A DNA stretch of 42,251 bases from the NCBI GenBank assembly GCA_044892505.1, contig CM097882.1, positions 131,812,001 through 131,854,251 of the forward strand. The letters are read 5' to 3'. The DNA is from Schmidtea nova (Eukaryota). Below are positions 1-31,080 of the stretch, one piece after another. Below the pieces are notes generated by a model, which searched no databases, was not told the DNA's origin, and was given only the letters and a program-made list of their open reading frames with translations. The position numbers and the translations under genes are program-made. How positions within the stretch are numbered: position 1 is the stretch's first letter; each line of letters starts with the position of its first letter.

Positions 1-2378
1 TGTGATATCGTGGGGGGGGGGGTATTTTTTTGAAATAATATATATTTATATATATAAAAAATATTTCCAAAATTAAAATAATAACAAAAATTTTATAATT
101 TTTTTTACAAATTTTAAATTTATAAATTTTTAAGAGTTAGACAATAATAAAATCTCTAATTTTATAATATAAATTTTTGGATTCGAATTTTTATATTTTA
201 AGGAAATATATATATATATATATTAATTGTAAATTTTTCTATGAAATTTCGAATTTGGAATTTTATAAAATGACAAAATCTTTGATATAATAATAATATT
301 TTCGATTTATAATTTGCATGTGTTCCAATACAATTTTTGATTAACAATTTTTTTTATTATAAATTTTCCGCAATATAATAAAAAGTAAATTTTTATTTTT
401 ATGATCAAAAACGAAATCTACATAATAATAAATTTTTATCCACAAATTTCGCAATCCAAATAAGAATTCAATCTAAAAATTCTGTATACTAAATAAAAAT
501 AAAATTAAAATAAATTGTAAATTTTTTCAAAGAATGGTTTTCGACATCAAGTAAGGTGAATTTCGGTTTCGTTCGAGCATGAATTTCCCAACCAAAGTGC
601 GCGAGAATTTTTTGAGACACTCTACTTGGGAACTTCAGGCTCCCGAAAACAAGGTTCGCTGGAGAAAATTATTTAGATAATGAATGAGGTTTAATTCAGA
701 TCAATCAATATTTGTCTTCATAATTCGTTTCATTTCTTGATCATTATATCAGCTTTGAGCATTCTTTCAAACGATTCTCTTTCAATATTAGCTTTTTACT
801 CTACTGGTGTTTTTTGGATAAGATGGTAATTGTTGTGAGAGTGAAGGCGAATGACGAGTAGAATATTCTTGTACAATTAAACTATGTAAATGGAAAAGAC
901 ATTGATGGATGAATTGACATTTACGTTTTTATGCAGTATTAGGTTTTAAGTGCTCATTATGTAAAAAAAAATTATAATTCAAATAAACTACACTTCTATA
1001 AATTTTAGATCATTAATATAACACCTTGCCCTTGGCCAAGCCACTGTTCCCCAGTTGGGATAAAGTGATCATGGATGTTTGGGCGTATCACCTGAACTCG
1101 GAAATATGGGCTGATCGATTACGAATCTAACCAGCGATCCACTCAGGCTACTTCCACCCGCTCGGCACAAGGCCAGAAACAGGTTTCGGGGGGTATGGAA
1201 GAAAAAGGAATTATTACTTTTATCTTGGTACAATAATTATTATTATAAAATAAATTTTTATTCCATCTGAGAGTTTATGACATGATTAAATTCAAAAAAT
1301 GAAAAACAAAGAAAAACAACTTTCATTTAATATTTTGGATAATAATTAAAATTGATGATGATAATATAAGAATAATAATCAATAATATAAAATTAACAAT
1401 AATAAAATAATACTGGGTACGGGGCAGGACCGTGCCTGGCCAGTGTTCATTGCGTGTACAGCACGCAGGTGGCTTAATCAACAAGGAAATTATTAAAGAA
1501 ATTGTTTAATGAATTTGTAAAAAAAATTAGTTAATTGAAATTCTATATAAAAATATAATTTATGGAATTTTCTTAAAAAATGATTCAAATACTATTTGTA
1601 TTCATTTCAGTTTCTTCTTTATTTTTTTCTCTTTAAGAAAGTCATAAGAAATTCTTATAATAGTTGGGCCAGGCAAATCAGTCATCATCTGAAAAGTAAT
1701 ATAAAATCAATAAAATAAATTTACAAAAAACAACAACAAAATAAATTACCATCACCAAGAATGCAGCAAATAAGCGGCAGAATCTAAAAGTAACAAAGCA
1801 TAAATCAAAACAGCAATAACAATAAAAACTCACCCATGCGGAAAGCAGAAAATCTGAAAGGGCCAGCTCAACCTGAACCTTTCGCGATGGTTCATTCAAA
1901 TGACAGATGACGCAGAGCAACCTCGCTGGATACTATGCTCCGGGATCATGACAGGCTCCGGTGTAGCGACACTGGGGAAATCCAGCTCTATCCTCACGCG
2001 CCAGGGAGCGTAACATTGGAGCCCCATCCAGAGCCGAATGATCTCCGATTATGGGAGGTGTTTGCACACAAAGACAAGCTTTGTTGGCACCCGTCCCCGG
2101 AACTATACCAAGCCGACGGAAAGAGACAGGATGACCGAAACGCGGATCAAGAATTGCGACCTTTTTTCTAAGAGGAAGACGTTCGTAGCCGAACACACAA
2201 GCCCTAATGTAATTGTATCATAAATGAATAAATTTTCCTTAAAAAGTCTTGTGATGGTTTCCGAGTGATTGTCGACGAATGTTTGAGTGGATAGGAAGTG
2301 GAAGCATAATAACGACATACCTAGGGACCAACCAACAATTATGTCTTCACAACTCAGATTAAATGCCCCTTTTTGTAG

Positions 2379-2936
2379 ATGAATACGGAAAACTCTCGCG
2401 ATTACAAGAAAGAAGCATGGGAACATAAAGCCCGCTCTAAAGTTCTCGAGAGCCGATTGCGCCGGTTGAACGAAGACCACCAGCGCGTCAAAACCACTTG
2501 GTTTAACCCGGAACGGGTCAAAAAAATACTACAAGCCCGATACCGCGCCGAACGGATGGCCGAAGACCAAGCGAGAGAAATGGCCGCAGTCAAACTGGAA
2601 CTGCATAACTACCTAAAGGTATCCACGCAGGAGTTCGTCACCCAGCAATTACGCTCAATGATCCGGGCGAGTACATTCAATAGATGGGTGGACACGATGG
2701 CCATCACTACAAGTACTCAGACGGAGATAGAGTCGAACTCTACGACGACTACCCCAACCATAGCAACCCCTCTGGAAGGCTCCAAGAGGACAAGGCGTCG
2801 CAACCGCCTGGGAGCGAAGAAACGACGTGAGCGCCGAGCGTATGCCGAACGACTAGGCATTGAAGTAGATTTCTTAAGCGGACTCACTGAAAAACAGTTA
2901 TTGGATGTGATTAACCCGTCGGTATTCCTGAATTGA
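2379..2936 (+). CDS. LTR-encoded 185-aa basic protein (coiled-coil-like N-terminus, Thr-rich linker, Arg-rich motif KRTRRRNRLGAKKRRERR)
   Basis: ATG-to-TGA ORF in a GC-elevated island, intact in both LTRs with 2 aa differences. No family recognised. Confidence 0.55.
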   Translation: MNTENSRDYKKEAWEHKARSKVLESRLRRLNEDHQRVKTTWFNPERVKKILQARYRAERMAEDQAREMAAVKLELHNYLKVSTQEFVTQQLRSMIRASTFNRWVDTMAITTSTQTEIESNSTTTTPTIATPLEGSKRTRRRNRLGAKKRRERRAYAERLGIEVDFLSGLTEKQLLDVINPSVFLN

Positions 2937-3081
2937 AATAAATGTATAATAACTGATTGACTTGATTTGTGTGTCTGTGGCATGTTTGAGAAGTTAAAAA
3001 ACAAAGTAAATTAAACTGATTCATTTGAGGTCACAGGCACCCTAAACATTGAATTTACCCTAGTACAACGAGAGGAGCGCA

Positions 3082-3145
3082 TATAATTGGGACCGAAAGA
3101 AATCCACAGAAACCTTCAATCGGTAGTGGTGGACCCGTGAATAAA
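3082..3145 (+). promoter_or_regulatory. Candidate TATA-like box (TATAAT, 3082) and poly(A) signal (AATAAA, 3140) of the B LTR
   Basis: Motif order and position near the LTR 3' end fit a U3/R boundary; short motifs are weak evidence in AT-rich DNA. Confidence 0.3.
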
Positions 3146-3303
3146 CAAGGGAATAGTAGCCGCAAGGTTGCTCACCTGCCTTGTCATTTCACAACGTTGA
3201 CACAGCACCAACATGATGAGTAGTTAGGGATACATCATGGGTGTCAGCGGGGATATGTTTTTATGTTGGCGAGATCACCCTAACGTGTAAAATCTAAATG
3301 ATC

Positions 3304-3855
3304 TCAGTTGTCCATCTTTGGTGGGCATAAACACGAATGTTTTGATTGCGTTTGAATTGAGAAAAGATGCCACTTTAGGCTGTTGATCGTTCCTTTAGAT
3401 AGGTTATAGAATAAACCTGCTAGATTTGATTTGGCAGACATTAATGCTCCGTTTCCATCCGTGCGACGAACATAGATTAATGAATAGTTTAAATATTGCC
3501 CAAGGAAGTCATTGTAACGACGTCGTAGCAACATACCCAAATTAACATGATGCATAATTCCTCGGTTTGTTAATCCTCCAATCCCATTAGGCCGCTTGTC
3601 TTCCCTATTCTTATCAGTTGGATATATTATAACAGTTGCTCTATCTCCATGTCGATATAAAACATGGGCATGCAATAGTTGTTTGTCTGTAGCAGAACAC
3701 TGATAAATTTGGTAATTCACGATAAGTGTAAAGAAGCATAAAATAATCATAATCAATGTTTTTGAATATCTATTGGATATTAGCTTAATCTGAGGAGGAT
3801 TCATATTGGCATTTCTCCAATTAAAAAGATCCAAAGAGAGAATTGAATTAGGCAT
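3304..3855 (-). pseudogene. Captured histidine acid phosphatase N-terminal fragment in the 3' LTR of A (truncated copy)
   Basis: HVLYRHGDRA...GLTNRGIMHHVNLGMLLRRRYNDFL...IYVRRTD...LMSAKSNLAGLF follows the lysosomal/prostatic acid phosphatase pattern (RHGDRSP...GQLT...G...LRKRY...YIRSTD..RTLMSA..NLAALF). Confidence 0.8.
3312..3316. repeat. Target-site duplication CCATC of element A (partner at 11387-11391)
   Basis: CCATC flanks both ends of A and occurs once at the empty site in the 3' LTR of B (33911-33915). CCATCT (6 bp) is an equally valid reading. Confidence 0.9.
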
Positions 3856-12409: not shown

Positions 12410-13089
12410 ATAACAGTGTACTTGTAATAAAAATAAAGGTTTTGAACAAGTACAGTTGTTGTTGAAATTATGAGGGTTTAACAATGATTTGGTAAAAATG
12501 ACCTAAGTAATTATGAGCTACTTACGAGTAGTCCGGTAAGCACCCATTGGGGGGAACCAACTGATCAACTTACCCGAGATGTGTAGAAAGTAGCCAATCG
12601 CGGATATTGGAAAGCTCTTGTGATGTGACTGATCACCACATCCCGCATCAGTAGACCAATGCGATCTTTTATATATTTTGGTTGGGGTGAAAGGTAGGGA
12701 CAACTCAACGAGGGTTAGGCGCGCGCAGAAAAATGTAAAAATAGGATGATAAACTGATCAATAAAGAGAGAGAGAAAGCAATGAAATGAGTAAGATGAAT
12801 AGAGAAATGTGGTATATGATGAAAGGCACGTAATCAGCTCGCATAAAGTAAAATCAAGTAGAGAGGTTGATGAATCAATAATAGAATAAAGGGGTGTAAT
12901 GGATGAACCGAGTAAATCGAAAACTCGAGGTCAAATGAATTCCTTGAAAGAAAGGAAATAATAAAAGGGGTCCTAAAGAGAAAGGATTTGCCCATAGTTC
13001 TTGAAAGATAGGACTTAACGAAACGCGACAATAGATTCTCCGAAGAAGCATAAGCAACCACTGAGAGATGATATTTCGAGTTTTCGTTG

Positions 13090-13534
13090 GTGAGCATAGG
13101 TCTCATAGTGAGCATAGGTCTCGTTATTAAACATAACATCATAGTGAGCATAGGTCTCGGCAGTAAACACAACATCGCAGTGAGCACGGTTCTCGTCAGT
13201 AAACCTAAGTCTCGTAGTGAGCAGAGTTCTCATCAATAAACGTAAGTCCTAGCAGCGAACATAGTCCTCATCAGTGAGCGTAGTTCTCATCAATAAACCT
13301 AGTCATCGTAGTGAGCTTAGTTCTCATCAGGAAACATAACTCCTGTAGTAAAAATATTCTTCGTCAGTGAGCATAGTTCTCATCAGGGAACATAGTTCCC
13401 GGAGTGAGCAAAGTTCTCATCAACAAACATAATCTTCATAACAACCATGTGATTACCAGTGAGCATAATTCTCGTCATTGAGCATAGTTCTCGTTAGTGA
13501 GCATAGTTCTCAGCTGTGAGCATAGTTCTCGTCC
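13090..13534 (+). repeat. Minisatellite of ~23 copies of an 18-19-nt unit (consensus GTGAGCATAGTTCTCRTCA, often alternating with a GTAAAC variant)
   Basis: Unit starts seen at 13090, 13108, 13144, 13180, 13217, 13274, 13311, 13367, 13404, 13459. Confidence 0.85.
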
Positions 13535-13876
13535 AAAGTAAAATATTGAGTAAAAGCCCACGAGAAAGACGACGAAGTGAGGCAAAAGAGGACTAAATAA
13601 AGTATAAAACTATCCGGATAGTAGAGATAAACGAGCAATATTGGAGATGAATAAAGGAGAGTAGAGACGAATAATGGATAATGAAGATAAACGACGAATA
13701 GTGAAAATGAATAGCGAATAATGAGGAATAATGGTTGAAAGAAACCGAATTAATAATGAAAGAGTTGAAGGTGCGCACCTGGGTATTGATAAATGCGAGT
13801 AAAGCTGATGACGTAGCCTAATGACGTTAAAGTATGCATACAGAGAGGAGTAATAAAGTAAAGTAAGTAAGTGAAA

Positions 13877-14264
13877 GGTGCTGACTGGAAAACCCAGCAG
13901 ACCATGAGATTCGAGGAGAGTAAAACGAACCGGTTTGGAAAAACAGGTAAAGTGGTAAAGACGCTGGCTGGAAAACCCAGCAGGTCAATGATAACGATCA
14001 GAGAAGATCGAGAGAATAAAAGTGAGTAATAATAGGAAGAATGGTGAAATTGAGGACGCTGACTGGAAGACCCAGCAGGTCAAAAGTGATGATCATCGGA
14101 GTAAAGAGCAGTAAAAGTCGATAGTAAAAGGATAAATGGGGGGGGGTAATAAAAGCGCTGACTGGAAAACCCAGCAGGCTAATGAGAATGAGCGAAGTCG
14201 AGAGTAACAAAAATTCGAGATAAAAGGTGAGAGTAAAGGTGCTGACTGGAAAGCCCAGCAGGCC
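13877..14264 (+). other. Array of five 27-nt bulged RNA hairpins NNN-g-CTG-r-CTGG-[AARRC]-CCAG-CAG-N'N'N'
   Basis: Copies at 13877, 13960, 14055, 14154, 14238; the basal 3 bp differ in sequence but stay complementary in all five. Confidence 0.8.
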
Positions 14265-15160
14265 AACAAGAGATGTTAGTTGAATTAAAGGTGAGTAGAG
14301 ATGAGAGTTAAAAGGAAGTAGTAAACGTAGTGTGAATAAAGAATAAAGTGAGTAGTCGAGAAACAGAGTAGTCGACAGATAAGGGGAAATTTGAACTCAG
14401 AGCCAGAGAAGCCTGAGAAAAGTAAAGGGTATAGTAAGAGCGCTGAGCGACAAAGTAATTGGGAAACTGGGGAAAAGTAATTGGTGTATTTGATAAAGTA
14501 TAGATAATTGATACGACTGCATAGATAATTTAAATAGACTTAAAATCAAGGGAAATGGGACAAATGGGGATCTTCATGAATTATGACTACACCCGTGAGA
14601 GGGACGAGAAACACGATAACGGAGACGTATCGTGTAAGTGATTATTTGTTTTAAGGAAACAAATCAATCAAGCAATTCAAAGCAATCTAGCAGTCAGAAC
14701 AATCAAAGGAAACAAGTCAAAGAAGAAGCAAAGCAAAAGCAAAGTAGATAACCAGTTGAGAATATAAGAAGTTGAGCGATAGACAAAATTGAGGAACGTG
14801 AAACAAGAAACGGTACAATACCGATCCTAACAGAAGCCGAAAGAAAAGCAGAAAAAAAGGCAAGAGCAGTGAATAAAGCAGCGCAACTAAAGAATAAACG
14901 AGTAGAGATCAGTGATAACTTGAGTAATAAAGAGAACCAAGAAGAAACCCCAGAGAATCCAGAAGTACGAAACGAAGTAGAAACGAAGTAGAAACGAAGT
15001 AGAAACGATAGACAGTGAACTAGTCAGTGAAAACAGAACAAGAAGCGAATCAAGAGATAACGAAGTAGAGAGTAGCGACAAAGAAGGATTAAACCCAGAA
15101 ATAAGTGGTGAACTAGAAGTAAATGGAACTAGTACAGCATTCCAAGACAGTGGAATCGGG

Positions 15161-16153
15161 ATGAGTGATCACAGAGAGGATCTGAGAGAAAAATTCAAGG
15201 GTGAACCATTCAATGGAGACGCCAGTAGATTGGACACGTTTCTAAAGGAATTTGGCATATTCGTGGATATATGCGGATGGAGTGCAGAAACGTTAGCGAA
15301 TCGAATCCCGCTATACTTGAAAGATAGCGCATTGAATCTGTATATCGAAAAGAGATCTGGAAGTAGTCCACCCAAAACGTGGGAAACGATCAAGGAGTTC
15401 TTCCAGCAAACGTTTGGGATAAATAAAGTGTTAAACGAAGCATTCGATGAATTCTCAGCAAGAAAACAAAGGAGAAATGAGTCAAATGCGGTGTACGCAA
15501 GTGAATTAAGAAAGTTGGCGAAACTGGCATTCAATAGAGGAAGTCCAGTAGACGAGGAATTGATGACATCATTATTCGTACGAGGTCTCACGAGACCTGA
15601 CATCAGAGCACAAGTGGGATGCAAAGGATGTAAAACAGTAGATGAAGCGTTGGAAGCAGCCAACCTATTCGAATTGCATATAGCAATGAACGACATGAGA
15701 ATTATGGCGGTAATGGAAAAAACGACAGAAGATGAAGAACAAGGAAAAAGAAACATGAATCAAAGCATTCCCCATTCGCAGAGATTGTTCAAAGAACCGC
15801 CAGCGAGGAAAAATAACGGATATATTACAGTAAACACGAATGGAGGAAACAGTTACAACGACAGGCAGAATAGGCAATGTCAGACGTGCGGAAAAAACGG
15901 ACATTGGCAACAAGATTGTTTTCAGAACGTAGCCTGTAAACTGTGTGGACAAAAAGGTCATTCAGAGAATCGATGTTATGGGAAAACGTGTTACACATGT
16001 GGAAAAACCGGACACATGTCAAGAGAGTGTAACCAACAGAGAAGTTGGAAAAAGACAGTGGAAAAAGACAGAATTACGGAAATCGACCAAGTTATGGGAA
16101 TCAGGGTCAACAACGTAACAACCCAAATAGCAGTGCAAACGAAGCCAGTATGA
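15161..16153 (+). CDS. gag: Gag of element B (capsid + three CCHC zinc knuckles); true frame probably shifts at ~16047 into ORF 16045-16332
   Basis: FNGDASRLDTFLKEF..W..IPLYLKDSA..TWETIKEFFQQTF..KQRRNESNAVY..LFVRGL; CQTCGKNGHWQQDC, CKLCGQKGHSENRC, CYTCGKTGHMSREC. Confidence 0.93.
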   Translation: MSDHREDLREKFKGEPFNGDASRLDTFLKEFGIFVDICGWSAETLANRIPLYLKDSALNLYIEKRSGSSPPKTWETIKEFFQQTFGINKVLNEAFDEFSARKQRRNESNAVYASELRKLAKLAFNRGSPVDEELMTSLFVRGLTRPDIRAQVGCKGCKTVDEALEAANLFELHIAMNDMRIMAVMEKTTEDEEQGKRNMNQSIPHSQRLFKEPPARKNNGYITVNTNGGNSYNDRQNRQCQTCGKNGHWQQDCFQNVACKLCGQKGHSENRCYGKTCYTCGKTGHMSRECNQQRSWKKTVEKDRITEIDQVMGIRVNNVTTQIAVQTKPV

Positions 16154-19100
16154 AAGAAGCCAAGTTGAGACAGGAGGTATCCAGATTACACGAGATAATC
16201 GAAAGCATGGCAAAGGGAAACCAGCAAGCTGCTCAACCAAAGATAAACATGATCCAGTTAATAGAAGCTGAGGCCGAAAGAGAAAACAGAGAAAGTCAAC
16301 AGAAACATAATCAAGAATGGGCTAGAATATGACGAGAAGAAGAACAAGTCAGACAGCAACGGTTACAACAGTTAAAAAAGGGAAATCCAAGGATCAACAT
16401 GATGCGAGCAATGATGGAAGAGAAGCAGCAGGATGAGTCGGACGAATTCGACGTTAAAGAGAAAAGAAACGAAGAGCAGAAACAGGAAGAAGTGAATCAG
16501 GAAGTAGAAACCGCAGAGCAGTATCAAAAAAATGAAGAAGTAGAAAAAGAAACAGAAACAGAAAAAGAAACGGAAAAAGAAACGAATCAAGAAGCGGAAG
16601 TGAGAATCAAACAAAGAGGAATGTTGGTGATCATGCCGAAATGATCAGCCGAATTCGTGATCACGTGTTTCGATTCAAATATGATGTAAAAGAAGAGGTA
16701 GGAATACTGTTCAATAAAGTAAATAAGATGATTCCGGGAGTAACGAAACTGCCCAGAGAAGCATTCCTACAAACAGAAGATTTACCCGAAGTAAAGTTGA
16801 AGATGACTGACATATGGGAAGATATGGGAGTAACAGAGACGAAAATAAACGTGACGATCATCAGAGAGGTGGAACCGGAGAAAACCCCACCACCAGTGAA
16901 ACATCAAACTCGGATCAGTCGAATATTCAAAGGAAAAATAAGACGAAGACGGTTGGAAGAAATAGATGAGTTGGAGAAAAGAATGGGAAAAGTTGAAATA
17001 ACGGGAACTGAGAGTGAACTAACACAGGAAGTTAGTAAAAATAAAGCGAGACCAACCGCACATATTGGGATGCTGAGACACCCAAGACAAGAATTGTCAG
17101 ATGAAGAAGACGACAGCGAAGTTAGCAGTCTGGCAGGAGACATGCTAAAGGAATCAGAAAACGAAGATGAAAAGATGGAAGTAACCGAGACAATAGAAAC
17201 GATGTCAGTAAAGGAAGAAGAAATTCAGAGATTGATGAATAACGCATTGGAAGTAATCCATAACGAGGAGTTCATCGACAAGAAGCGATACCGAAAGTTT
17301 ATACGAGCAGTATGGCATATGAAGTATAAAGAATGGTTACAAGAAAGAGAAGTGAGGGTAATACAAGAATACATTGAGAAGCTATTGAAAGAACCACTCA
17401 ACGAATACTTAATACAAATATGGATAAACGAGTGTTCACCGAGAATCTGGATAAAGAACCCAATGACGGATGGAATTTACCGATGGGTTGAAGACAGATT
17501 GGGAAGCTCGTACAAAGACAAATTCATATATTCGGAAAACGGATTGGTGGAAAAAGGAACGCATATGATAAACACGGGCATATGGCCAGGAGAAATAACA
17601 ACGTTATCTATATGCAACTCCAAGAAGGAAGAGAATCTACAAGAAATCGCAAAGAAAGCGAATACGCGTTATGAGACGGGAATAAAACCTCAGTTAGTAG
17701 AGGCAAAAGAAAGAATCTTGGCAGAGAATTTGAATACGATGATAGAACAGATCATCCAACAAATCAAGAAACACCGAAAGGAATTGACGAAAAGCGAGTA
17801 TGAGAATTTGAAGCAGTGTATCGAGAACATACGAGATACCAGTCAAACGAGACATTCAAATTTCAAAACGGACAAGCTAATTACAAAGATGGGAAAAGAA
17901 ATGTTTAAACAAGGAGAGATATCAGATCTGAAGATTACCGTGAGATTACCGAACGAAGAGACAAGACAAATTGAGGTAATACCAGATAGTAAAGTGGGAG
18001 AAATAGTAGATGTCATCAATGAGACGATATTACAACGAGAACGGGAAGACGAATTCGAAGATGACATAGCGATAAAATACAAAGAACATCTACTGAACGA
18101 ACGTGATGAGAGACGAGCGTACAAAATCGGCATATGGGATAATTACCAGGCAATACACGTCATCAGAATGGATGATGTGCCGAGGGTAACACCAAAAGAT
18201 GAAGCAAAGAGAAAGAAACGACAAGAGGACGTTATACGCAAGTTGAGACAGATAGTAGAAATCTATCGGAACTGGCAGATAAAGCCAGAATGGGAGACAA
18301 TATTGGGAGAATTAGATCTTAACAAACGACGATTAACGCCAGTAGAGAAACAATGGGAGGATAAAGAGAAATGTTGGAAAGTGAAGAGGCGTGTATGAAG
18401 AAGATCCGGAAGAAGAAGACAGATATGAACCGAATACGAAACGGATATGTATGGTAACAAGGAAGTTATTACCAACGGACTTAGACGGACCAGAAACAGC
18501 AGTAATATGGGCAAAATTGGAGAGACAGAAAACGGATGAATTAATCGAACTGTTGAGAGGAAATACTCGGGGAAAAAGACAAACAATAAAAGGCTTAGCA
18601 GAATTTATAATCGCAAATGGAGAAGATATAACGAACTTGAGAAAAGTAGCTAAAGCGATAGCAGAATACAAAAGAGTTAACGAGTGGTGTCCAGAGCAAC
18701 TAGACCATGTAGTAAAAAAGTGGAGAAACAGAGAATTCGCAGAGGAAACGCCACAGAAAATACATTTGAGGATAATGTATCCGAATCAGAGAAAAGAAGA
18801 GTTTTGGGTGATGCTAACAGAGAAAGTGAAGAGTGTCAAAGAGAAACTGATGTATGAACTACCATTCCATCTACAACATCAAGGACGATCGTTGGATAAC
18901 AATTTGGAAATCTGGCTGACACCAGTGCAATTGGATTTAATGAATACGCTAACAGTGGCACAGATAGTGGGTCAACCACTGAAGCTGAAAGAAGAAAAGA
19001 AACCGAAAGGAAGCATGAGTTCACCAAGTCCAATGAAGTCAACAATGATCCCAGGAACAAGTTCGGGACAAGCAAGAACAACACCAGCGAAAATAAGAGA

Positions 19101-19584
19101 GAGAACACCTCCAGAAGCGTATGACGTCGATGAGATATTAACAGACAGTGATGAAGCGATAAAGGAATTAACAAAGTTGACTCAAAAACCAACGGCGAAT
19201 ATTTTCGACAGAATAATAGATATGCCAATAACGTCACCAGCGGAAATCGACGATCAAGGAGTGGAACAAGAGGTAGTCATAGAAATAGTAAACGATTCCG
19301 AAGACGAGCAAGAACAACCCCAGTTCACTCAAGAAATGGAAAGATGGTTGGAACAACGAGCAAACGAAGGTAGAGATGTTACAGAAGAAACCGGAAGAGC
19401 AACGAGATTCGTGGAAACCAGAACGGGAATGGAGAAACGACCAAGAGGAAGACCAAAGATAGATCCAGCAACAACAATCCCAAAGACAAGGGAAGAAAGG
19501 AGACAAGAGCAATGGGAGATTTGCTTGAAGAAACTGGATAAAATCGCAGAAATCAGAGGAAAAGAGGAGAATCAAGTTTGTCAA
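16045..19584 (+). pseudogene. Accessory region of the B polyprotein: acidic/coiled segments, up to four ubiquitin-like folds and an AT-hook
   Basis: Long ORFs (16045-16332, 16399-16644, 16641-18398, 18391-19884) with the same codon bias, joined by one in-frame TGA and 1-nt indels. UBL patterns judged by eye; KRPRGRPK at 19435-19458. Confidence 0.6.
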
Positions 19585-19990
19585 GGGGAAGAATGGCTCA
19601 CCAAAACGATAATGAATGTGTTAGCGATAATTGATCCAGAATTAAAGAATTTGTGGCGGAAAAACGAACCTAGTACAAAGGCAAAGATGCTACACAATGC
19701 AATAGCACCGATTATGCCAGAATTAATTAAAGCGAAAACAAAATCGAATCATCTAGATTGGCAAGGAACCACGATGTTAATAAAAAGGCTACTCAACGGA
19801 GCAGAGACGGACAGCAAATATTTAGTGGCAATCTCGTATACGATATACAACCTGTTAACGCTAAGCCAAGGAAGTCCGGAGTAAACTCCGATGGGAAGAC
19901 ATATCAAGATCACGGCGATGATTATCGAGAAAGAAATCGAACCATATATCCTCAGAAAAGGAGGATGGGAAAAGTTCATAAAAGAGAACC
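19585..19990 (+). pseudogene. Bcl-2-like domain spanning the in-frame TAA at 19882-19884
   Basis: BH2-like EKEIEPYILRKGGWEKFIKE vs Bcl-xL NDHLEPWIQENGGWDTFVEL; BH1-like LLNGAETDSKYLVAI vs LFRDGVNWGRIVAF, with matching helix spacing. Confidence 0.6.
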
Positions 19991-20088
19991 AGACAAAAGA
20001 AGGGTCTAACGTTATGAGAAAGAAACTCGAAGGAGTATTGAGAGAAATGGAGAATAGACAAACGATGCAAGGAAATGGAACATCAACG

Positions 20089-22020
20089 TTGAATTTAAAC
20101 TCGATAATCATGATGATGTTGGTATGGTTGTTAAGCACAGAAGGTGTAACAACGTTCGAAGTGTTTGATTGTGATCAAATGAATGTGGGAGAAAAGTACT
20201 CATTGAGAGGTACGGAGCAATGCAAAGATGCAACTCCAGTAGAGTTGAAAGAGATTAAAAAGGAACAATGGTACCACGTGTATCAAGAAGCAGAACTCAT
20301 AAAGACAATGGTGAATGAATGCAAAGTACAGAAGACGAGATTCGCATTCTATTGTGGGAGAGGACATTATTCAGCAATTATCATGCCAGGAACGAAAAGA
20401 GAACCAATCGTGTTGCAAGGAGAAGACTGTGAAGCATTATTTAAACATGGATAAGTAACAACAAGAGACAAAATCAAGATAAAAGGAAAGCCAGGGATGA
20501 TGTTGCAGCAGACGTATTATGTAGCAGGACAAATTACGGGAGGAGAAGGATATTGTCAAGGAGAAACCTACCCGATATTTGGAGTACCCGCAACCAACTT
20601 AGTGGTGATGGATACGTATATAGTCGAACTGAAAAGCTACGAAGCATTCTTCGAACCGACAACAGGAGAAATGAAAACGTTATCCATGTGTAAAATTGAC
20701 AGAAGCATGTGTCAAACGGGAATGTCAACTTTGGTGTACAAACCGAAAGTGAACGAATGTCAATTACAAATGCTACAAGGAGCGAAGTTCGACGAAATTC
20801 AAGGAAAAACATTCCGAGAAGAGGACGATGATGACAAAGCTAGAGCAAAACATCTCAAGGAAGCTTTAGAGAATAAAAGACAACTGAAACCAGACCATAG
20901 AGAGAAACGGATAGAGATGAGAGCCACACCAACAGTGCTGATAACCACAAATCAGGATTTGGGAATGAGATTCATAAAAGGGAAAGCCACAATGAAGTGT
21001 AGTACAACGGTATACGAAACGAACTATCCAGGGATATACGTGTCAAAACAAGAAGTGCCGAATGCGAAACCCAAAATCGACACAATGGATATCAAACTAC
21101 ACTTGTATGTGAATAATAAAATGGATTTCTTATTCCATAGAGGACAAGCCTCATTGCAAAAAGTGTACTACGATCTGATAAATAACGATTGTATACTGAA
21201 TCGAGAAATATTAAAGACAAAGTTGGCCGTAGCGATCACGAATCCAGACAGTGCGATGCCACTATTACCACTGAGAGAAGGACATTTCGGAAGAGTGGTT
21301 GGAGAGGCAATGTATGTATACATCTGCGAAAAGACACACGCACCGCTAGCAGCAACAACGCAGTTGAAACCTGGAACATGTACAAACGAACTAGAAATCG
21401 ATTATAAAGGAAAAGTACGATACGTTCAACCGGTGACGAGAATCATCAATCCACCAAATCCATTCAACTGTAGTAATGCGTACGGACCACTTTATCAGAA
21501 ACCAGATGGTAAATGGGTTTTGTTCCCAGCAAGAAATGAAGTATTAGCACCAAGAGAATTTGAACTGATGCAGTTGTCAAAGGATAGACAGTTCAGCGAC
21601 GTAGATGTCTCAAACAACGGAATATATAGTCCAAAAGATTTGGAAGCAGCGAGACAGAATATATTATTTCCGGCGAGAAGAGAAGCATCACTGTCAAATA
21701 TCGTAACAATAACGGGAGGAACGAATTATCGAGAAGGACCGAATTACAAACTACTATTATCACCGGCACATTTCAAGAAAGCCAACGAAAATATGATGAA
21801 GGCAATGTGGGGAAGATTCCTGATATTCGAACAAATGATGGCTGGAATACTGGGAGTTATATTAATAATCCAAATCATCAGGGTGATAATAACGCAAATG
21901 TTAGCGTGTTTCGATATCTATAAGAGAGAAAAGAAAGTGAATTGGAAAATGGTAGTAGGATTTTTACCATTCCTTGCGAAAACGATGGTGTTACACGGAC
22001 ACTCAAAGGATATTCATCGA
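20089..22020 (+). pseudogene. env: Envelope glycoprotein, chuvirus-G-like (putative class III/gB-like fusogen); in-frame TAA at 20452-20454
   Basis: Signal peptide LNLNSIIMMMLVWLLSTEG/V, then FEVFDC..YSL...QC..VYQ..ECKV..FYCG..HYS, about 14 ectodomain Cys, YVQPVTRII, FNCSNAYGPLY, a TM at 21835-21915 and a second hydrophobic segment at 21943-21995. Confidence 0.75.
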
Positions 22021-22459: not shown

Positions 22460-25400
22460 ATATGGGACCGATCTTAACAACAACCGTAAAAATAAACGGA
22501 AGAGAAATCGAAGCTATGATCGATACAGGCGCGAATATTTCGGCAATCGACATCAACTACATACCAGAGAAAAACCAAGGAGAAATCGAGAAGACGAATG
22601 TACATGTAATCGCGTGCAGTCAGGAGACAGTAGAAGTAGCCGGAAGATGGTTTGTAAAAGTTAAACATCGAAATGCAGAAATTAATACGTACATCGCTGT
22701 AATACCATCGCTGAGTGTACCATGTATCATCGGAACTGACCTGATGCCAGACCTGTTCAAGGAAATCGTAATTGATTTAGGAGCAATGAAGCTAAAAGAT
22801 AGAACAGGAAAAATTTGCCGAATGGAAGTTAAAGTGGCAAGTGCAGAACAAATAGTTGTACCAGCTAGACACGAAATGATGTGCTATGTAAAGATTGATT
22901 CAACAATAAAAGGAGATATGATATTCGAACCAAGTAAAAAGTTCGAAGCAAAGAAAGAATTAAAAATGGCAAGAGAATTAGTCACAATAAACCAAGAAGG
23001 TGAGATACCGATTAATCTAGTAAATTTCGACGAAGAGGACAAGATAATATACGATAATGAGAGATTGGGTAAATTAACACCCATGTCCAAAATCGAAATA
23101 CCAGACAAGAATGAGAAAAGCAAAGGCGAATTACCATGGAAAATCGACAGTGTGTTGTTAGACGAACAGCAAAAGGAACAATTACAGAAACTATTGATGG
23201 AATATAAAGACATATTCGCAGCATCAGATCTGAATTTAGGAACATGTGATGTAACATTTCACACGATACCGTTGACAGACGAAACGCCAATCGCATTACG
23301 ACCATACAAATTGGCAGAAGCTCAAAAAGCAGTGGCAGAAGAAGAGGTACAAAAGATGTTAGATGCAGAGGTCATCGAGCCTAGTTGCTCACCCTGGCAA
23401 TTCCCAGTGGTGATGGTGAAAAAGAAGGATGGAACTCAGAGATTCTGTATCGATTACAGACGATTAAATGCAGTTACGAAAAGAGATACGTACCCACTAC
23501 CAGACATAAACGAGATGTTGTTGACATTACAAGGAGCAGCCTATTTCACGTCACTGGATTTAAAAAGCGGATATTGGCAGATTAAAATGAAAGACGAGGA
23601 TAAAAAGAAAACAGCATTTACAATCGGACGAGATCTGTACCAATTCAAGAAAATGCCGTTTGGATTAACAAACGCGCCAGCATCATTCTAGAGATGCATG
23701 AATTTCGTAACACATGGCATAAAACAATGCATGGTGTATATCGACGATCTATTGATCTACTCCGCAACATTTGAAGATCATTTGCAAGACATCAGAAATG
23801 TGTTCGTGAAATTGAGACAGTGGAAACTGAAATTGAAGCCGTCAAAGTGCGATTGGGCAAAAGAGAAAGTGACATTCTTAGGTCACATCGTATCAGCAAA
23901 AGGAAAAGAACCAGGTCAAAGGAACATCGAAAAAGTCAAAAAATGTCCACCACCGAAAACAGTGACACAAATACAAGAATTTCTGGGATTGTGTGGATAT
24001 TATCGAAAGTTCATCAAGGACTACGCAGGAATATCAAAGCCAATGCAAGAATTAGTAAGACAAGATGTGTCGTTTGTGTGGGGAGAAGAGCAACAAGCAG
24101 CATTTGAAACATTACGAGATAAACTGATTACAACACCAATATTGGTCCATCCAGATTTTAAGAAGCCATTTTTGTTGGCAACAGATGCAAGTGGATATGC
24201 AGCAGGAGCAGTGCTAGGCCAATTCGATGAGGAAGGCAAAGAAAGAGTAATTGGATATTACAGTCGAACGTTCAGGAAGCATGAAAAGAATTACTCAGTC
24301 ACGGAAAGAGAAGCCTATGCGATAATATTGGCAATCAAGCATTTCAAATATCTATTGTGGGGTCATGAAATATATATCACGACGGACCATCAACCATTGG
24401 TATGGTTAGGTCAGCATAAAGAATCATCAAGTAGATTGATGCGTTGGGCGATGCAGTTGCAAGAATACTCGCCATTCATAAAGTTTAAAACAGGAAAAGC
24501 GAATGCAAACGCAGATTGCATGTCAAGATTTACATTTCCAGAATTGGTGAACCTGAACGCTCCAAAGATATGTGTATTAATAGCGGAAGATTTGGATTTT
24601 AGCGAACTAAGGAAAGATCAACTCGAGGATGAGGAGTTGGGATTGATCAGCAAGTATCTGAAAGAAAGGGAAATGGAAATATTCAACAAGAACCAAGGTT
24701 TGAGCGAACATATGCAAAAATAAAAGCACCGGTATTTAGTGGAAAAAGGATGGTTATTGATACAGGATGGAGAACGGAGATTGATGTGCTTACCTGCGAA
24801 TAGACGAAAGGATATCATGATTCAATATCACGACGGAAAATTAGGAGGACATTTGTCAGCAAAAAAGACAATCGGGAGATTGAGACAAAAGTACTTTTGG
24901 CCAACCATGGAAGATGATGTGAAGGAATGGATAAAGAACTGCTTAACCTGTGCGACAAGAAGAAACGTCGAAACAAAGTGGAAAACACCACTAAAACCAA
25001 TGCCAATACCTGCAGAACCTATGGCGACGATAGCAATGGATGTAGTTGGACCATTACCAGAAAGTCTAAAGGGGAATCAATACATATTAGTAGTCACAGA
25101 CTATCTAAACAAATTCCCAGAAGCGTTCGCAATACCAGATCAAAAGGCAAAAACAGTTGCGAGAATATTGGTGGAAGAGATATGCTGCAGATACGGAACA
25201 CCAAAGAAAATCCTAACGGATCAAGGAACGAATTTCATGAGTGAAATATTAGACGAAGTTACGAATTACTTCCGAATTGCGAAACTCGAACATCCCCATA
25301 CCATCCACAAACGAACGGTCAAACAGAGAGGTTCGATGGAACATTGATACGCATGTTGTCGAATTACGTCAGTAAACATCAGACTGATTGGGACGAATAT

Positions 25401-25850
25401 ATAAACTTGTGTTTAATGGCATATAGAATGTCAATACATGCGGCAACAAAGCTAAGTCCATTTCAACTGATGTACGGAAGAGATTGCAACTTACCAGTCG
25501 ATTTAGAATACCAAACACCATTATCACAGTACATGGAGGTTGACGATTATGTTACAAAGTTCAAAGAAAGAATGCAAGAAATCTGGAAAACGGCGGAACT
25601 GAACATCAAGTTCTATCAAGAGAGTTACAAGGATCTACATGATCAGAAAAAGAATGTGAAAGCACATGATTTAAAAGTTGGAGATTGGGTAATAATTGAA
25701 ACACCAGAAATAATACCCGGTACGGTCAAAAAACTCCAACGACCAGGCAAAGGGCCATACGAAATAACGACAGTGAACGAAAATAATGTGCGAGTACGAT
25801 TGGTGAATAATCCATTGGTAAGACCAATATATGTGAATGCCTGTCGATGC
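22460..25850 (+). pseudogene. pol: pol of element B (protease, RT, RNase H, integrase); stops at 23689 and 24721, frameshift at ~25289
   Basis: IDTGANIS (22519); PWQFPVVMVKKKDG, IDYRRLN, DLKSGYWQI, MPFGLTNAPASF, YIDD (23737); TDASGYAAGAVL, YSVTERE, TDHQPL; HDGKLGGH..CLTC, MDVVGP, TDQGTNF, YHPQTNGQTERF, GKGPY. Confidence 0.96.
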
Positions 25851-26149: not shown

Positions 26150-26450
26150 ATTGAATTTACAGGATAAAGACGGAAACACAGCGCTGCATAATGCAATCAA
26201 GCACGGCGGAAACGAGAAAGTGAAAGAGATTGTAGAGATGATACTCGAAGGTGGAGGAGAAATTGACAAGGTGAATTGGGAAGGAATTACTCCACTCATG
26301 ATGATGACAATTCAAGGAAGAAACGATGAAATAGTCAAGCTATTCGGAAACACCAGATCGAATTGGATGACAAAGGATAAAGAGGGACGAACATTCTTGA
26401 ATCATGCAATTGATAGAGCGAATCACCGAATACTTAAGTATATCACGGAA
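26150..26450 (+). CDS. Ankyrin-repeat block 1, in frame with the integrase C-terminus (ORF 25344-26966)
   Basis: QDKDGNTALHNAIKHG..IVEMILEGGGEIDKVNWEGITPLMM..KDKEGRTFLNHAID..ILKYI. Confidence 0.88.
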
Positions 26451-26943
26451 AATGCCACGTGGGAAATCGATGAACTAACCAGAGGATCGATCATGAAACA
26501 AGCAATCAGAGTAAGAAACAGTAAAACCTGGAGAATATTGCTAAACTGGAAACGACCAGAAGGAGATTCGTGGGCCATAGATTGTAATGAAGTGTTCACA
26601 AGGGGAGAAAATGCGTTACTGAAACATCTGTTAGAAGTAACATACGATCCAAAAACACTTGCGGTATTGATAGCGAGAGATACGCTACGGGTTAGTGAAA
26701 ACCCAAGAGAATACAAGTTGGATGACAGAAAGAAAGAATTATTCGAATTAATCAAGAGATGGTGTGATAAACAATGGAATCCGGGCATGAGCTTCGAACA
26801 TTTCTATGACATCCAAAAGCAGCACAAAGAAATAAGCAAGCGATATAAAGAGCTGATAGAAGCATTGAAATATGGACAATTCTTCAGACAAGCAGTGTAT
26901 CAAGACCAACGGATGAAACAGATGCAAACACGAATAAGGAGCA

Positions 26944-28125
26944 GTGTTGTTCAATGCAAAAGCTGATTATCAAGAGAGATTGGATGCAATCGTAGTAAAA
27001 GCGCAGGAAAGATTATCAGAATTCAAAGAAAATAAAAACTCGTTTGAGATACTAGGAGCAATTACAGAGAAAGTGCACAGATACGCACAAGGAGATTATA
27101 ACGAAAACGACATAGAAACGATCAAAAATCAAATGCCAGTAGCATTCCTATTATCAAAGGATGGGAGACTACCGATACACTGGGCATTACGTCGAAAGAA
27201 AGAAAACGAAGCGTTAGAAATTACAAAAGTGTTGGTCAAGTGCGAAGCGGACATGAATACGGTTGATGATAATGGAGATACAATCATGATAATCGCAGCA
27301 AGAAAGAAGACGAGGTTGAAAGTGCTAATCGAATTATACGATGCAGGAGCAAAAATCGAAGGAAAAAATGGAAAGAACAATTCCATCCTAGACATCGCGA
27401 TACAGTGGAATAACTTCGAGATGATCAAGTTCATAAAAGCCATCAGGAAACAGGATGAGATCGAATACCTGGCAAATAACGTAAAGAATTTCAGTCTGAC
27501 AGTAATGATACACGACATAGAGAAAACAAGAGCAATACTAACATGGGTGAATCCGGTCACCAAGGAACCAGTGTTCAAGATCAATGACCATATGGAACAG
27601 AATCAGAATTGGTGTATCAGAAGCGCGTTACTAAGACACAGAAAGCCAGAGATAGTAGAAGAATTCTTGAAGAGAAGAGATTTAAAATTGACGAACAACC
27701 CAAAAGAACAGGAACGAATGGGAAGATGGAAAGACTTATTTAGAAAGTATGTGAATGAGTGGGCAAATGCCAAAGAAACGATCAAGCAAAGTAGATTAGA
27801 AGACATAGAACCATCCAAGGAGATGGAAATACGAGAATTCGAGTCTAGCACACTCGCGGTTCAAGCGTACGAAAAATTGATTGAAGAAATCAATGTCGAG
27901 GACGACATTTTTAAAGGACCAGGGGGTGGTTCCAGAGATCACAATGATAAAGGAGACGACGAAAAAGAAGACAACAAAGATAACAACGAAAACAACGACA
28001 ACAAAAGAACAAAGGATGATGGAAAAGAGAGACAAGAAGAACCGAAGCCAACGAGAAAGGACAAGAAGAAAGAAGCCGAAGAGCGAGAAAACAGTGGAAC
28101 AAAAGACGAACGTACGAACTATTGA
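26944..28125 (+). pseudogene. Frameshifted continuation of the polyprotein with ankyrin-repeat block 2 (27150-27450) and an acidic/basic tail
   Basis: KDGRLPIHWALR..ITKVLVKCEADMNTVDDNGDTIMIIAA..LIELYDAGAKIEGKNGKNNSILDIAIQWNNFEMIKFI. Confidence 0.85.
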
Positions 28126-28146
28126 AAACGAACAGGAAGTCTGCTT

Positions 28147-28593
28147 TTGAGACCAGAAATGTTGTGCATCGCGATATTGATAACAATCATCGGACAAGGA
28201 GAAGCCAGGAAACAATACGTCACGCTAGAAATAATTAGAGAAAATGAAGTATACGAAAGAATATGCTGGAAAGAAAACCTGAGTAAAAACGAAACGCTTA
28301 AGTGTATATTGTCAGATTTGAAGCGAGACGTCATCCAAATCAAAGGATTGGAGAAAGAAAAATCATACATAATATGCGTAATAAAGCAGAGAGGAGAACC
28401 AAAAGCACCTCAAGTAACTGCATGTCAATTATACAAAGCAACGGAAGCGCTGAAAATACAGAAATGGATTGAGAAAAGAAGCGAAGAGACAACGAGAAGA
28501 ACAGAAGTGGAACCAGAGAAAGGGAAGAATCAAACCAAAGCAGGAGAAGGAATCAGAAACCGAACAGAGAAAGAAAGAATAACCAAAAATTAA
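28147..28593 (+). CDS. Small predicted secreted glycoprotein (signal MLCIAILITIIGQGEA, 4 further Cys, NLS and NET sequons)
   Basis: Same frame as ORF 26944-28125, 21 nt after its TGA. Its stop lies 4 nt from the deletion junction, so it may be truncated. Confidence 0.5.
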   Translation: MRPEMLCIAILITIIGQGEARKQYVTLEIIRENEVYERICWKENLSKNETLKCILSDLKRDVIQIKGLEKEKSYIICVIKQRGEPKAPQVTACQLYKATEALKIQKWIEKRSEETTRRTEVEPEKGKNQTKAGEGIRNRTEKERITKN

Positions 28594-28597
28594 CAGA

Positions 28598-31080
28598 TGT
28601 TTGGGCGTATCACCTGAACTCGGAAATATGGGCTGATCGATTACGAATCTAACCAGCGATCCACTCAGGCTACTTCCACCCGCTCGGCACAAGGCCAGAA
28701 ACAGGTTTCGGGGGGTATGGAAGAAAAAGGAATTATTACTTTTATCTTGGTACAATAATTATTATTATAAAATAAATTTTTATTCCATCTGAGAGTTTAT
28801 GACATGATTAAATTCAAAAAATGAAAAACAAAGAAAAACAACTTTCATTTAATATTTTGGATAATAATTAAAATTGATGATGATAATATAAGAATAATAA
28901 TCAATAATATAAAATTAACAATAATAAAATAATACTGGGTACGGGGCGTGGCCTGGCCAGTGTTCATTGCGTGCGCAGCACGCAGGTGGCTTAATCAACA
29001 AGGAAATTATTAAAGAAATTGTTTAATGAATTTGTAAAAAAAGTTAGTTAATTGAAATTTTATATAAAAATATAATTTATGGAATTTTCTTAAAAAATGA
29101 TTCAAATACTATTTGTATTCATTTCAGTTTCTTCTTTATTTTTTTCTCTTTAAGAAAGTCATAAGAAATTCTTATAATTGTTGGGCTAGGCAAATCAGTC
29201 ATCATCTGAAAAGTAATATAAAATCAATAAAATAAATTTACAAAAAACAACAACAAAATAAATTACCATCACCAAGAATGCAGCAAATAAGCGGCAGAAT
29301 CTAAAAGTAATAAAGCATAAATCAAAACAGCAATAACAATAAAAACTCACCCATGCGGAAAGCAGAAAATCTGAAAGGGCGTGGGCAGACATCACCAAGA
29401 ACCTGAAAAAATAAAGCAAATAATAACGAAAGATTTATGCATGAGTAAACAAACAACTTACTGAATTAAATCATGCAGAAAAACTGACGAACATAAATGA
29501 GTAACAATAAATACACACATACTTGATGCTGATTGGCCAGCCAACATCACAAATTTAGTATAAATACTGAAGCAAAATCACTATGAGATATATCATTTTT
29601 TACCGAGTGAAATTGTCAGTGAAACCCGATACTGTAACTTTGTGAAATCTAGGTGTATCGAAATAAAAGTTAAAGTTGATTGCATTATTACTTATTTTGA
29701 ACCCTCATAATCATACTAAAATCAATAAGGATCGTCCCGAAGGCCTAACGGTCTGACGGGATTCTCGGCCTCTCGGCACAACATATTTTCATATGAGGTG
29801 CCGATGCGGCGGGACTCTAGGTGTAATAAACTATTTATCGATCGGGAGTGGGGTGCACATGGGATATCGAGAAACGGCGGGTCAGCAAATTTCATCCGAG
29901 GTAGAGTTAAGCTAGACTATATATTACAGGCCCCAGAGAACCCAAGAGGAGGGAGTGCACATAAGATGTAGTGAATCGATGAGTCGAACGTATATCCAAC
30001 CCTATGCATACAATCGATAATAAACATCATGATTTACCGAGAATTAGAGGCGAGGGACCACCAAAGTTTTAGGCAGTTGGTGCATGTACATCTCATATAG
30101 GAGTTAACATTTACGGGATTCGGAGCCCAGATTAACCCTAACGAGCAAAGATCATTGGTAGATACAGATAGGCTGATGACAAAATGATGAGGTATGCATG
30201 GTGCAGATAGAGATAAAAATTTACAAATAAGTAATACAATAAATGACGGTATATTGATCATGTGTGATTAGAATGACTGAAAATAAATTTTAACTAAATC
30301 AACAACTGGTGATCAGCAGTAGCAATAACATCATCCTACACGGTCTATTTCACCGACCGAAATATGGTTAACCGGATGGATACTAGACACCCACTTAGCT
30401 GTGAACAACAAAATCGCCAATCTGCGTGGAAGGATCCACTATAAATAGAATCCAGCATCACTAATGAATATTCAACCAAATTATTTACAGATGAAACGCG
30501 AAAGCCTTATCACCTCGATGCCAACTTCGTCTCTCCCGCAGCAACCAGGTCACGATAAGACGAATCGGAAACGCACCCGATCTATGCCGGAGCGACATGC
30601 AGATGACCAAAGACAAGTGGAATTGCAGGGGGTGAAAGACGCACCCATTCCGATTGTCCGCCAAGCTCACTGACACCTCCGCAGATGGAGACAACGACAC
30701 TCTAATCCAGCGGCCAGAGTCGCATCATGTTCGTTTACGTTCCGACTACGATGGGAAGGAGATGCGGAGTGGATGTCATCGTTGAGCCAGCTCAACCTGA
30801 ACCTTTCGCGATGGTTCATTCAAATGACAGATGACGCAGAGCAACCTCGCTGGATACTATGCTCCGAGATCATGACAGGCCCCGGTGAAGCGACACTGGG
30901 GAAATCCAGCTCTATCCTCACGCGCCAGGGAGCGTAACATTGGAGCCCCATCCAGAGCCGAATGATCTCCGATTATGAAAGGTGTTTGCACACAAAGACA
31001 AGCTTGCGACCTTTTTTCTAAGAGGAAGACGTTCGTAGCCGAACAAACAAGCCCCAATGTAATTGTATCATAAATGAATA
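28598..31080 (+). repeat. Partial, variant copy of the B LTR (equivalent to 1076-2230) with a 1.4-kb extra segment (29381-30787) and a ~75-bp deletion near 31005
   Basis: 28598-29380 matches 1076-1863; 30788-31080 matches 1864-2230. Confidence 0.85.

Follow-up and report, generated by a model that had tools for sequence, protein, structure and literature searches.

A predicted Bcl-2-fold domain directly ahead of the Env signal peptide in a Burro-type gypsy element of Schmidtea nova

Introduction

A 42,251-nucleotide stretch of the Schmidtea nova genome (assembly GCA_044892505.1, contig CM097882.1, positions 131,812,001 to 131,854,251 of the forward strand; henceforth termed the window) holds a decayed copy of a Burro-type gypsy long terminal repeat (LTR) element of about 29 kb. 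Its polyprotein encodes a domain with a predicted Bcl-2 fold, broken in this copy, that stands directly before the signal peptide of the envelope glycoprotein (Env). We lean slightly towards a reading in which cleavage at this signal leaves the Bcl-2 domain tethered to the endoplasmic reticulum (ER), where it would act on host cell-death or survival signalling. The Burro-type assignment is made on architecture, the named elements Burro1-4 and GYPSM1 being compared by their published description only.

According to the Burro section of a review (PMC6431247), planarian Burro/GYPSM1 elements exceed 30 kb and carry an ORF1 of 4,873-5,140 aa, in which env lies between BCL2 and the protease and matches mononegavirus fusion proteins; ankyrin, MATH/TRAF and ubiquitin-like (Ubl) motifs are published as well. 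The review credits the BCL2-like motif to Grohme 2018, also cites Jurka 2007 for Burro/GYPSM1, and presents interference with host apoptosis as a possibility still to be tested. The Bcl-2-before-env layout is already published for Burro (PMC6431247). The present analysis adds a test of the fold, describes five families within one genome and seven relatives outside it, traces the hydrophobic segment to a signal peptide, notes the loss of the glycine in Bcl-2 homology motif 1 (BH1), and predicts an ER tether. With limits for the domain, a predicted fold and topology and a possibly altered groove, the apoptosis question becomes concrete.

The Bcl-2-like domain and its sequence relatives

Translated with X at its stops, the frame of the window copy runs from 18385 through a PF24664 glycoprotein into protease and reverse transcriptase; Gag precedes this stretch, and RNase H, integrase and ankyrin repeats follow it. 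The Bcl-2-fold domain lies at 19585..19995 on the forward strand. In the translation of 19585-20145, a BH1-like motif, LLNGAETDSKYLVAI, covers residues 69-83 (19789-19833) and a BH2-like motif, IEPYILRKGGWEKF, covers residues 118-131 (19936-19977). An initial annotation made from the letters alone had placed these motifs at the spacing seen in Bcl-xL, which is borne out by a profile of eight element sequences that aligns to Bcl-xL over 73 columns without gaps (E 3e-7). It had also stated that a TAA splits the domain, and translation locates this premature stop at codon 100 (19882..19884, forward strand).

A DNA search of the same genome with an 851-base query scored 40 of 506 candidates, all spanning the whole query, and the 39 loci besides the window are 94-95% identical to it. 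Counts at the TAA and for the frame refer to the 29 sister loci that were fetched. Since all 29 have a sense codon at the site, the stop represents decay private to the window copy; programmed readthrough of the TAA was ruled out on the same count. The 187-residue segment is open in 27 of these loci and the whole 1,283-codon frame in 15.

Searches with PF00452 and env yielded five element families in the genome, each with the domain, a GGW motif, a linker, a hydrophobic h-region and an Env start. The Pfam comparison suggested by the initial annotation succeeded in sister families and failed for the window sequence: PF00452 is the top family in four sister families (E 3e-8, 1e-6, 2e-4 and 1e-3; 34.4, 29.6, 22.4 and 19.8 bits), only L055 (34.4 bits) lying above the cut-off of 31.4 bits and the other three at 19.8-29.6, and the window family has no match. 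A leave-one-out profile lacking the window's family scored the window segment at 47.6 bits, compared with at most 11.4 in 1000 shuffles and 0.4 for the reversed sequence; the test is mildly circular because a sister of the query took part in setting the alignment columns. An ESM Atlas search with a sister copy of the window domain gave no usable match, and word-indexed protein searches gave 0 of 4,648 candidates and, in another case, 1 of 2,252.

Conservation of the GGW motif in related elements, which the initial annotation had made a touchstone of its proposal, was found in 11 of 12 aligned relatives, and the GW of BH2 in all 12. The first Trp of the BH2 pattern W-x5-G-G-W is present in 10 of the 12, with Tyr in the window family. 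The ratio of nonsynonymous to synonymous substitution rates (dN/dS) of the domain, window versus sister, is 0.11 (0.03-0.25); elsewhere it is 0.04-0.14 in env and 0.11-0.60 in the upstream region. Judged from these alignments, the Bcl-2-like domain is real and under purifying selection, with a constraint no stronger than that of its neighbours.

Predicted fold

AlphaFold2 was applied to a natural sister sequence 94% identical to that of the window, with an element-only alignment of 12 as input. It predicts eight helices across residues 2-137 with a mean predicted local distance difference test (pLDDT) score of 74, mostly 80-92 within the domain, arranged as a bundle with helix 5 at its centre, and puts the TAA site in the loop that joins predicted helices 5 and 6. 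In VIA-align, the top 30 of 48,161 chains all have the Bcl-2 fold (best Z 13.4, root-mean-square deviation 2.8, 136 residues), and the first unrelated row follows at Z 7.6. The Foldseek matches listed from the PDB all belong to the Bcl-2 family (E 3e-3 to 1.5e-2), and in BFVD the top of the matches listed consists mostly of viral Bcl-2 or E1B-19K proteins. The structural check proposed by the initial annotation for its Bcl-2-like domain thus returns, at the level of a model, the Bcl-2 helical bundle, and these predictions make it almost certain that the domain has this fold.

A chance helical-bundle match around the GGW is, by comparison, very improbable. It would agree with the lack of a direct Pfam or PDB sequence match in the window family and with the high Z values that can arise by chance among helical bundles, but sister families match Pfam Bcl-2 independently, one above the cut-off, and the profile match to Bcl-xL and the leave-one-out margin stand against it. 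So do the 30 Bcl-2-fold rows above the first unrelated one, which cover the whole domain. A chance fold was largely ruled out by these Pfam, profile, VIA-align and leave-one-out results.

The genome also contains Bcl-2 genes of host type. When the genome was searched with PF00452, 150 of 1,679 candidates were scored and 149 of them matched; among the best 30 loci, 16 have env directly after the domain and 14 have none. These 14 host-type loci (genes or pseudogenes) are L046-L054, L057, L065, L067, L071 and L074. The N-W-G-R of BH1 is kept only in L046 and L048 among them, and several host-type genes also lack the BH1 glycine. Near-duplication within L053/L065 and within L057/L071/L074 suggests that a small group has expanded. 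Scanning five 10-kb stretches around three genes revealed no host Bak-like BH3 exon. A complex prediction of the element domain with a host Bok-like BH3 stretch scored 0.02, in a run that used no alignment and folded no controls and so weighs neither for nor against binding.

The hydrophobic segment as a probable Env signal peptide

Behind the domain, a variable linker (19996..20088, forward strand; 24-56 residues from GGW to h-region across the aligned relatives) leads to a hydrophobic run, LNLNSIIMMMLVWLLS, at residues 169-184 (20089-20136), 37 residues after the BH2-like motif. T-E-G follows directly at 20137-20145, and the frame then enters the glycoprotein. Together the h- and c-regions form a probable internal Env signal peptide at 20089..20154 (forward strand), with the cut predicted after 20145 or 20154, and this peptide is also predicted to tether the upstream piece by its C-terminus. 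In a sister copy whose frame has 5,088 codons, the first hydrophobic segment lies at residue 1759, and the next, 570 residues on, is the Env transmembrane helix at 2345.

The initial annotation had taken this run for a Bcl-2 tail anchor that doubles as the Env signal, with a cleavage-like site at T-E-G. Its position holds, and it is the first such segment of the polyprotein, yet as a membrane anchor the run is weak, with a 10-residue core and a mean hydropathy of 1.52 over 19 residues. T-E-G satisfies the (-3,-1) rule, although the site in register with relatives is V-T-T, three residues further; both sites fit. The segment has the anatomy of a signal peptide, which agrees with one of the two proposed roles; the notion of a Bcl-2 tail anchor turned signal does not survive comparison with relatives.

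Among 1.84 billion representatives searched, 67 proteins matched, seven of them with a Bcl-2 domain; the metagenomic relatives come from ENA, JGI/IMG and one NCBI record. We compared 33 proteins, namely the five families and 28 of the 67 representatives: seven with Bcl-2, nine that lack Bcl-2 and have 140 or more residues upstream, and 12 that start with Met just before the segment. The 39 left out are mostly fragments, proteins lacking the Env start, or further Met-start proteins. Mean h-region lengths are 14.9 residues in Bcl-2-bearing, 14.6 in Bcl-2-less and 15.7 in Met-start proteins, with similar hydropathy. By a hand-made (-3,-1) rule, small residues stand at -3/-1, two residues before the x-Y/F-D-C start of Env, in 10 of 12 bearers, 9 of 9 Bcl-2-less and 10 of 12 Met-start proteins. 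Six of the Met-start proteins (647-719 aa) look like whole stand-alone glycoproteins, and others may be fragments. Because the same segment occurs ahead of Env in all nine selected Bcl-2-less polyproteins and at the N-terminus of stand-alone glycoproteins, it appears to be Env's own signal. From these sequence comparisons we consider it very probable that the segment is the Env signal peptide. An origin of the segment as a captured Bcl-2 tail was ruled out, the same segment preceding Env in relatives without Bcl-2.

The encoded protein also departs from the textbook tail-anchored layout. A tail-anchored protein has a single hydrophobic segment near its C-terminus and is inserted post-translationally, as described in PMC2173004, whereas here about 570 residues of ectodomain and more follow the segment. 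Only the predicted cleavage product would have tail-anchor topology, by a biogenesis that differs from that of tail-anchored proteins. True tails are seen in two genes of host type, L053 and L071, where a hydrophobic stretch lies 13-21 residues past G-x-W and runs up to the stop codon.

Insect gypsy elements usually use spliced env messages. Were Env made here from a spliced or internally started message of its own, the segment would be an ordinary N-terminal signal whose link to Bcl-2 matters only in the long polyprotein. The linker of the window family does contain three in-frame Met codons, and at least one is present in 5 of 12 bearers. The other seven have none, which argues against a conserved separate Env start; the junction frame is open in 27 of 29 sister loci and in four other families, and Pol, further along this frame, depends on the same topology. 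Four sequencing runs of unrecorded kind, searched as contigs only, gave just low-depth joints, none a credible env splice, and carry no weight either way. We regard a separate Env message as improbable.

Origin of the arrangement

Presence of the Bcl-2 domain is patchy among relatives. On an Env tree of 28 rows it requires four changes (4-5 in the bootstrap), two of which are forced by starred branches. Bearer P0009 groups as sister of three polyproteins lacking Bcl-2 (96/91), and two of these three retain near the signal a short RPRGRPK-type motif, presumably AT-hook-like, that serves as a positional marker. In a tree of 98 columns, 11 element domains fall on one side of a branch and 11 host-type fragments on the other (90/91, not starred); this tree is unrooted, has several long branches, and leaves out P0028 and three near-duplicate host loci. 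These trees are compatible with what we consider likely, a single capture of the domain from a cellular gene followed by losses in some lineages. The captured domain would then have been placed before the Env signal, which would thereby have come to occupy the position of a Bcl-2 tail anchor.

Three relatives have unusual compositions. In P0021, an unrelated N-terminus, which we take to resemble a mitochondrial ribosomal protein, is joined to the element signal and Env start; P0034 combines PF02913 with the env family; and P0012, an element polyprotein, is labelled as coming from a bacterial metagenome-assembled genome. All three are likely chimeras or contamination.

Predicted topology and possible function

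In the arrangement we propose, about 1,640 residues from Gag to the linker would remain in the cytosol, since the signal is the first hydrophobic segment. The signal segment would insert at the ER co-translationally and signal peptidase would cut after it, so that Env passes into the ER lumen as far as its own transmembrane helix, beyond which Pro-Pol would return to the cytosol. The upstream piece would end in the signal stub, its Bcl-2 domain facing the cytosol at the ER membrane. The element protease would later free this piece from Gag (about 1,470 upstream residues), and the ER-tethered Bcl-2 domain would act on host cell-death or survival signalling. One membrane-tethered Bcl-2 domain would arise per Env made. 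Any anchoring of Bcl-2 is predicted to be secondary to the Env-signal role, co-translational and at the ER. That the Bcl-2 piece stays tethered we hold to be fairly probable.

Flaviviruses and hepatitis C virus (HCV) provide the closest parallels. As described in PMC7601889, one segment of the flavivirus anchor C is both the C-terminal anchor of the capsid and the signal of prM, while HCV core is released from its signal stub by signal peptide peptidase, and hence retention and release of a stub both have precedent. In these viruses, as here, a hydrophobic segment would anchor an upstream cytosolic protein and signal the next glycoprotein; their upstream protein, however, is a capsid whose anchor is later cut off (PMC7601889), whereas in the present retroelement a fold captured from a host regulator is the closest domain upstream. 

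A number of observations weigh against a tethered, active Bcl-2 protein. Neither the window domain, compared with Pfam Bcl-2 and PDB sequences, nor the sister copy L020 of the window family, compared with Pfam Bcl-2, gave a Bcl-2 match; hhalign of four sisters with the window domain reached E 2e-4 but only 47% probability, and Foldseek E-values never reach 1e-3. The N-W-G-R of BH1 is eroded: among 11 element domains the Gly and the Trp are kept in none and Arg/Lys stands in nine, and the window family has T-D-S-K at this place. The BH1 glycine is important for BH3 binding, and its absence from all 11 leaves an anti-apoptotic function only putative. In two family pairs the dN/dS of the domain is 0.14 and 0.16 with dS saturated in both, and in two of three pairs the value is not below that of the upstream region. 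Relatives exist that lack the Bcl-2 domain altogether. The 10-residue h-core of the window family is short for a lasting anchor, and signal peptide peptidase may trim such a stub, as happens with HCV core. Finally, the route predicts the ER, whereas viral Bcl-2s that block apoptosis almost always carry an anchor and go chiefly to mitochondria (PMC5691641).

Alternatively, the segment may serve as Env signal only, anchoring the Gag side temporarily for assembly in the manner of flavivirus anchor C until the element protease or signal peptide peptidase releases a soluble Bcl-2 protein. The segment has like mean length and hydropathy in 9 of 9 Bcl-2-less polyproteins (14.6 versus 14.9 residues); in P0005 and P0007 the AT-hook-like marker lies 97-117 residues before Env without a Bcl-2 domain between, compared with about 225-240 in bearers; the linker is long and variable; a further signal-like segment occurs past the ankyrins; and HCV core is freed from the E1 signal by signal peptide peptidase (PMC7601889). 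Against such a release, all 12 bearers have the end of the domain 48-78 residues ahead of Env and never elsewhere, placed where a Bcl-2 tail would be, in keeping with the short tails of L053 and L071. We see soluble release as conceivable but less than probable.

The loss of BH1 Gly and Trp in all 11 element domains, together with the TRAF-like open reading frame (ORF) and ankyrin repeats of the same element, would fit a different outcome, in which the fold was kept and the BH3 groove lost, leaving a scaffold directed against innate-immune or NF-kB/TRAF signalling. Vaccinia A52, B14 and K7 keep the Bcl-2 fold and leave pro-apoptotic proteins unbound (PMC5691641). The nearest folds in VIA-align are, however, BH3-binding pro-survival proteins (Z 11-13), above A52 (8.0), A46 (7.1) and B14 (6.1), and the BH2 W..GGW as well as a basic residue at the place of the BH1 Arg are mostly kept. 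Such a scaffold strikes us as rather unlikely, if worth keeping in view; the TRAF-like ORF and the ankyrins are compatible with either a survival or an immune-signalling role. Within the ER-tethered reading, a stronger version, in which an anti-death Bcl-2 is an obligate by-product of Env, uses the Env signal as its ER anchor and keeps stem cells with an active element alive, is speculative and in our estimate unlikely.

If tether and survival function were both true, an element of high copy number and recent activity would have a direct influence on which host cells survive. It would also mean that a viral signal peptide targets a Bcl-2 protein, whose anchor is borrowed from a glycoprotein, and that functional viral Bcl-2 is not confined to the large DNA viruses. 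The Bcl-2 proteins of those viruses (A179L, KsBcl-2, BHRF1, M11L; A52/B14/K7) resemble the element domain in predicted fold at 10-15% identity and in a divergent BH1. They differ in being encoded by genes of their own, and almost all of the anti-apoptotic ones bring an anchor with them (PMC5691641), while here the domain is part of the polyprotein of a reverse-transcribing element with predicted co-translational ER entry.

Relation to published elements

Burro/GYPSM1 of dugesiid planarians, as described in the Burro section of PMC6431247, is alike in its size of about 30 kb, its single ORF of about 5,000 aa, a Gag with three CCHC knuckles, its BCL2-like, env, Pol, ankyrin and MATH/TRAF parts, and perhaps its Ubl-like region. 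In the present element family TRAF forms an ORF of its own behind the polyprotein, complete with RING, zinc fingers and MATH, whereas in Burro it lies inside ORF1 or in an upstream ORF; Pfam showed no BIR in the frames scanned here; and the C-terminal FN3-like repeats go unmentioned in that section, which likewise contains no fold test and no signal-peptide or topology analysis. GAG-ENV-POL Ty3/gypsy elements with an env of HSV/gB type (herpes simplex virus, HSV) are described from Nematoda, Bryozoa and Platyhelminthes in PMC13524379; like the window element they have env before pol, and a gB-type, chuvirus-like ectodomain lies between a signal peptide and a transmembrane helix, or between two transmembrane helices. 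The main text of that paper contains none of the terms 'Bcl', 'Burro' and 'apopto', and PMC11410931 mentions Burro once. A literature search gave no paper stating that an Env signal anchors a Bcl-2 domain; the extended data of Grohme 2018 may treat transmembrane layout.

Other parts of the element and of the window

Upstream of the Bcl-2 domain, Gag lies at 15161..16153 (forward strand, as are the following features) with a capsid-like region and three CCHC knuckles (PF03732, PF00098 and translation), frameshifted from the rest in the window copy. A likely ubiquitin/SUMO-like domain at 18730..18990, a lead only, has ESM Atlas feature matches of 0.87-0.88 to Rad60-SLD/ubiquitin clusters; a Ubl-like region is published at the same place in Burro (PMC6431247). 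The RPRGRPK marker, for which AT-hook-like is our own label, is at 19438..19458 and is common to relatives with or without the Bcl-2 domain.

Downstream, a glycoprotein ectodomain of Monjiviricetes/chuvirus type (about 570 aa) with a transmembrane helix at about 21835-21891 extends over 20155..21891, as judged by PF24664 and hydropathy; the Pfam match is above the cut-off (E 1.3e-67, 228.7 bits versus 27), and a second private-looking stop interrupts it at 20452-20454. Protease, reverse transcriptase, RNase H and integrase (22480..25500, by Pfam) follow env in frame, broken by stops and a frameshift in the window copy, and ankyrin repeats (PF12796 and related) occupy 26150..27440. Pfam listed no BIR or dUTPase-like motifs in the frames scanned; the published Burro calls used HHpred. 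The stretch 28135..28590 holds another hydrophobic segment resembling a signal, the second of its kind, and the first FN3-like repeat of four; at 28590 the window copy ends abruptly.

The end of the polyprotein is best seen in a sister copy, L045:653-2629 (+), which has past the ankyrins three more hydrophobic segments (residues 4441-4459, 4595-4617 and 5008-5026) and four Cys-containing repeats of about 85 residues. One C-terminal repeat was modelled as a beta-sandwich (pLDDT 66), with nearly all of the 50 matches listed being FN3 domains or FN3-containing receptors (best Z 7.7); a profile of the repeats gave 0 matches against PDB sequences. The model suggests that a predicted surface protein would be cut from the end of the polyprotein. 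Between polyprotein and 3' LTR, L045 carries the whole TRAF-like ORF (RING, zinc fingers, MATH; L045:3182-4609 (+)) and a 396-residue charged ORF without a Pfam family, likely a coiled coil (L045:4672-5859 (+)). Both are deleted from the window copy.

Sister copies retain a single gag-env-pol frame of up to 5,088 codons. Four of five copies fetched at length span about 29.4 kb, slightly below the published >30 kb for Burro, with LTRs of 3.1-3.3 kb that are 99.8-99.9% identical; the fifth is rearranged at its 5' end. The 5,088-codon frame is uninterrupted in one of the five and broken by stops or frameshifts in the other four, and all five have two further ORFs ahead of the 3' LTR.

The window copy itself has several stops and frameshifts, a nested gypsy insertion and an internal deletion after 28590. 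The main part of its 5' LTR (478..3317, forward strand) is 99.4% identical to 31077-33916 over 2840 nt, its end and the following primer-site-like sequence being as in sister copies; the last ~22 bases lie at 11387-11408, on the far side of the nested insertion. LTR comparison places the 3' LTR at 31077..33933 (forward strand). The window LTRs are only about 72-76% identical to those of sister copies, though the internal region is 92% identical, and each contains a 185-residue ORF without a Pfam family (2379-2936 and 32978-33535, +). At 28591-31076, LTR pieces (28596-29380 and 30786-31005; 98% identical to the element LTRs) replace the 3' internal part. The 5' untranslated region has tandem repeats of 19-nt period and a repeat family spaced by about 90 nt (13079-13533 and 13873-14275). 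The nested element, of ordinary gypsy size, lies at 3312-11386 (-) near the end of the 5' LTR; its own LTRs (1,085 nt, 99.6% identical) hold a reading frame matching histidine phosphatase (PF00328, E 1.7e-10), and a weak ubiquitin match stands ahead of its gag.

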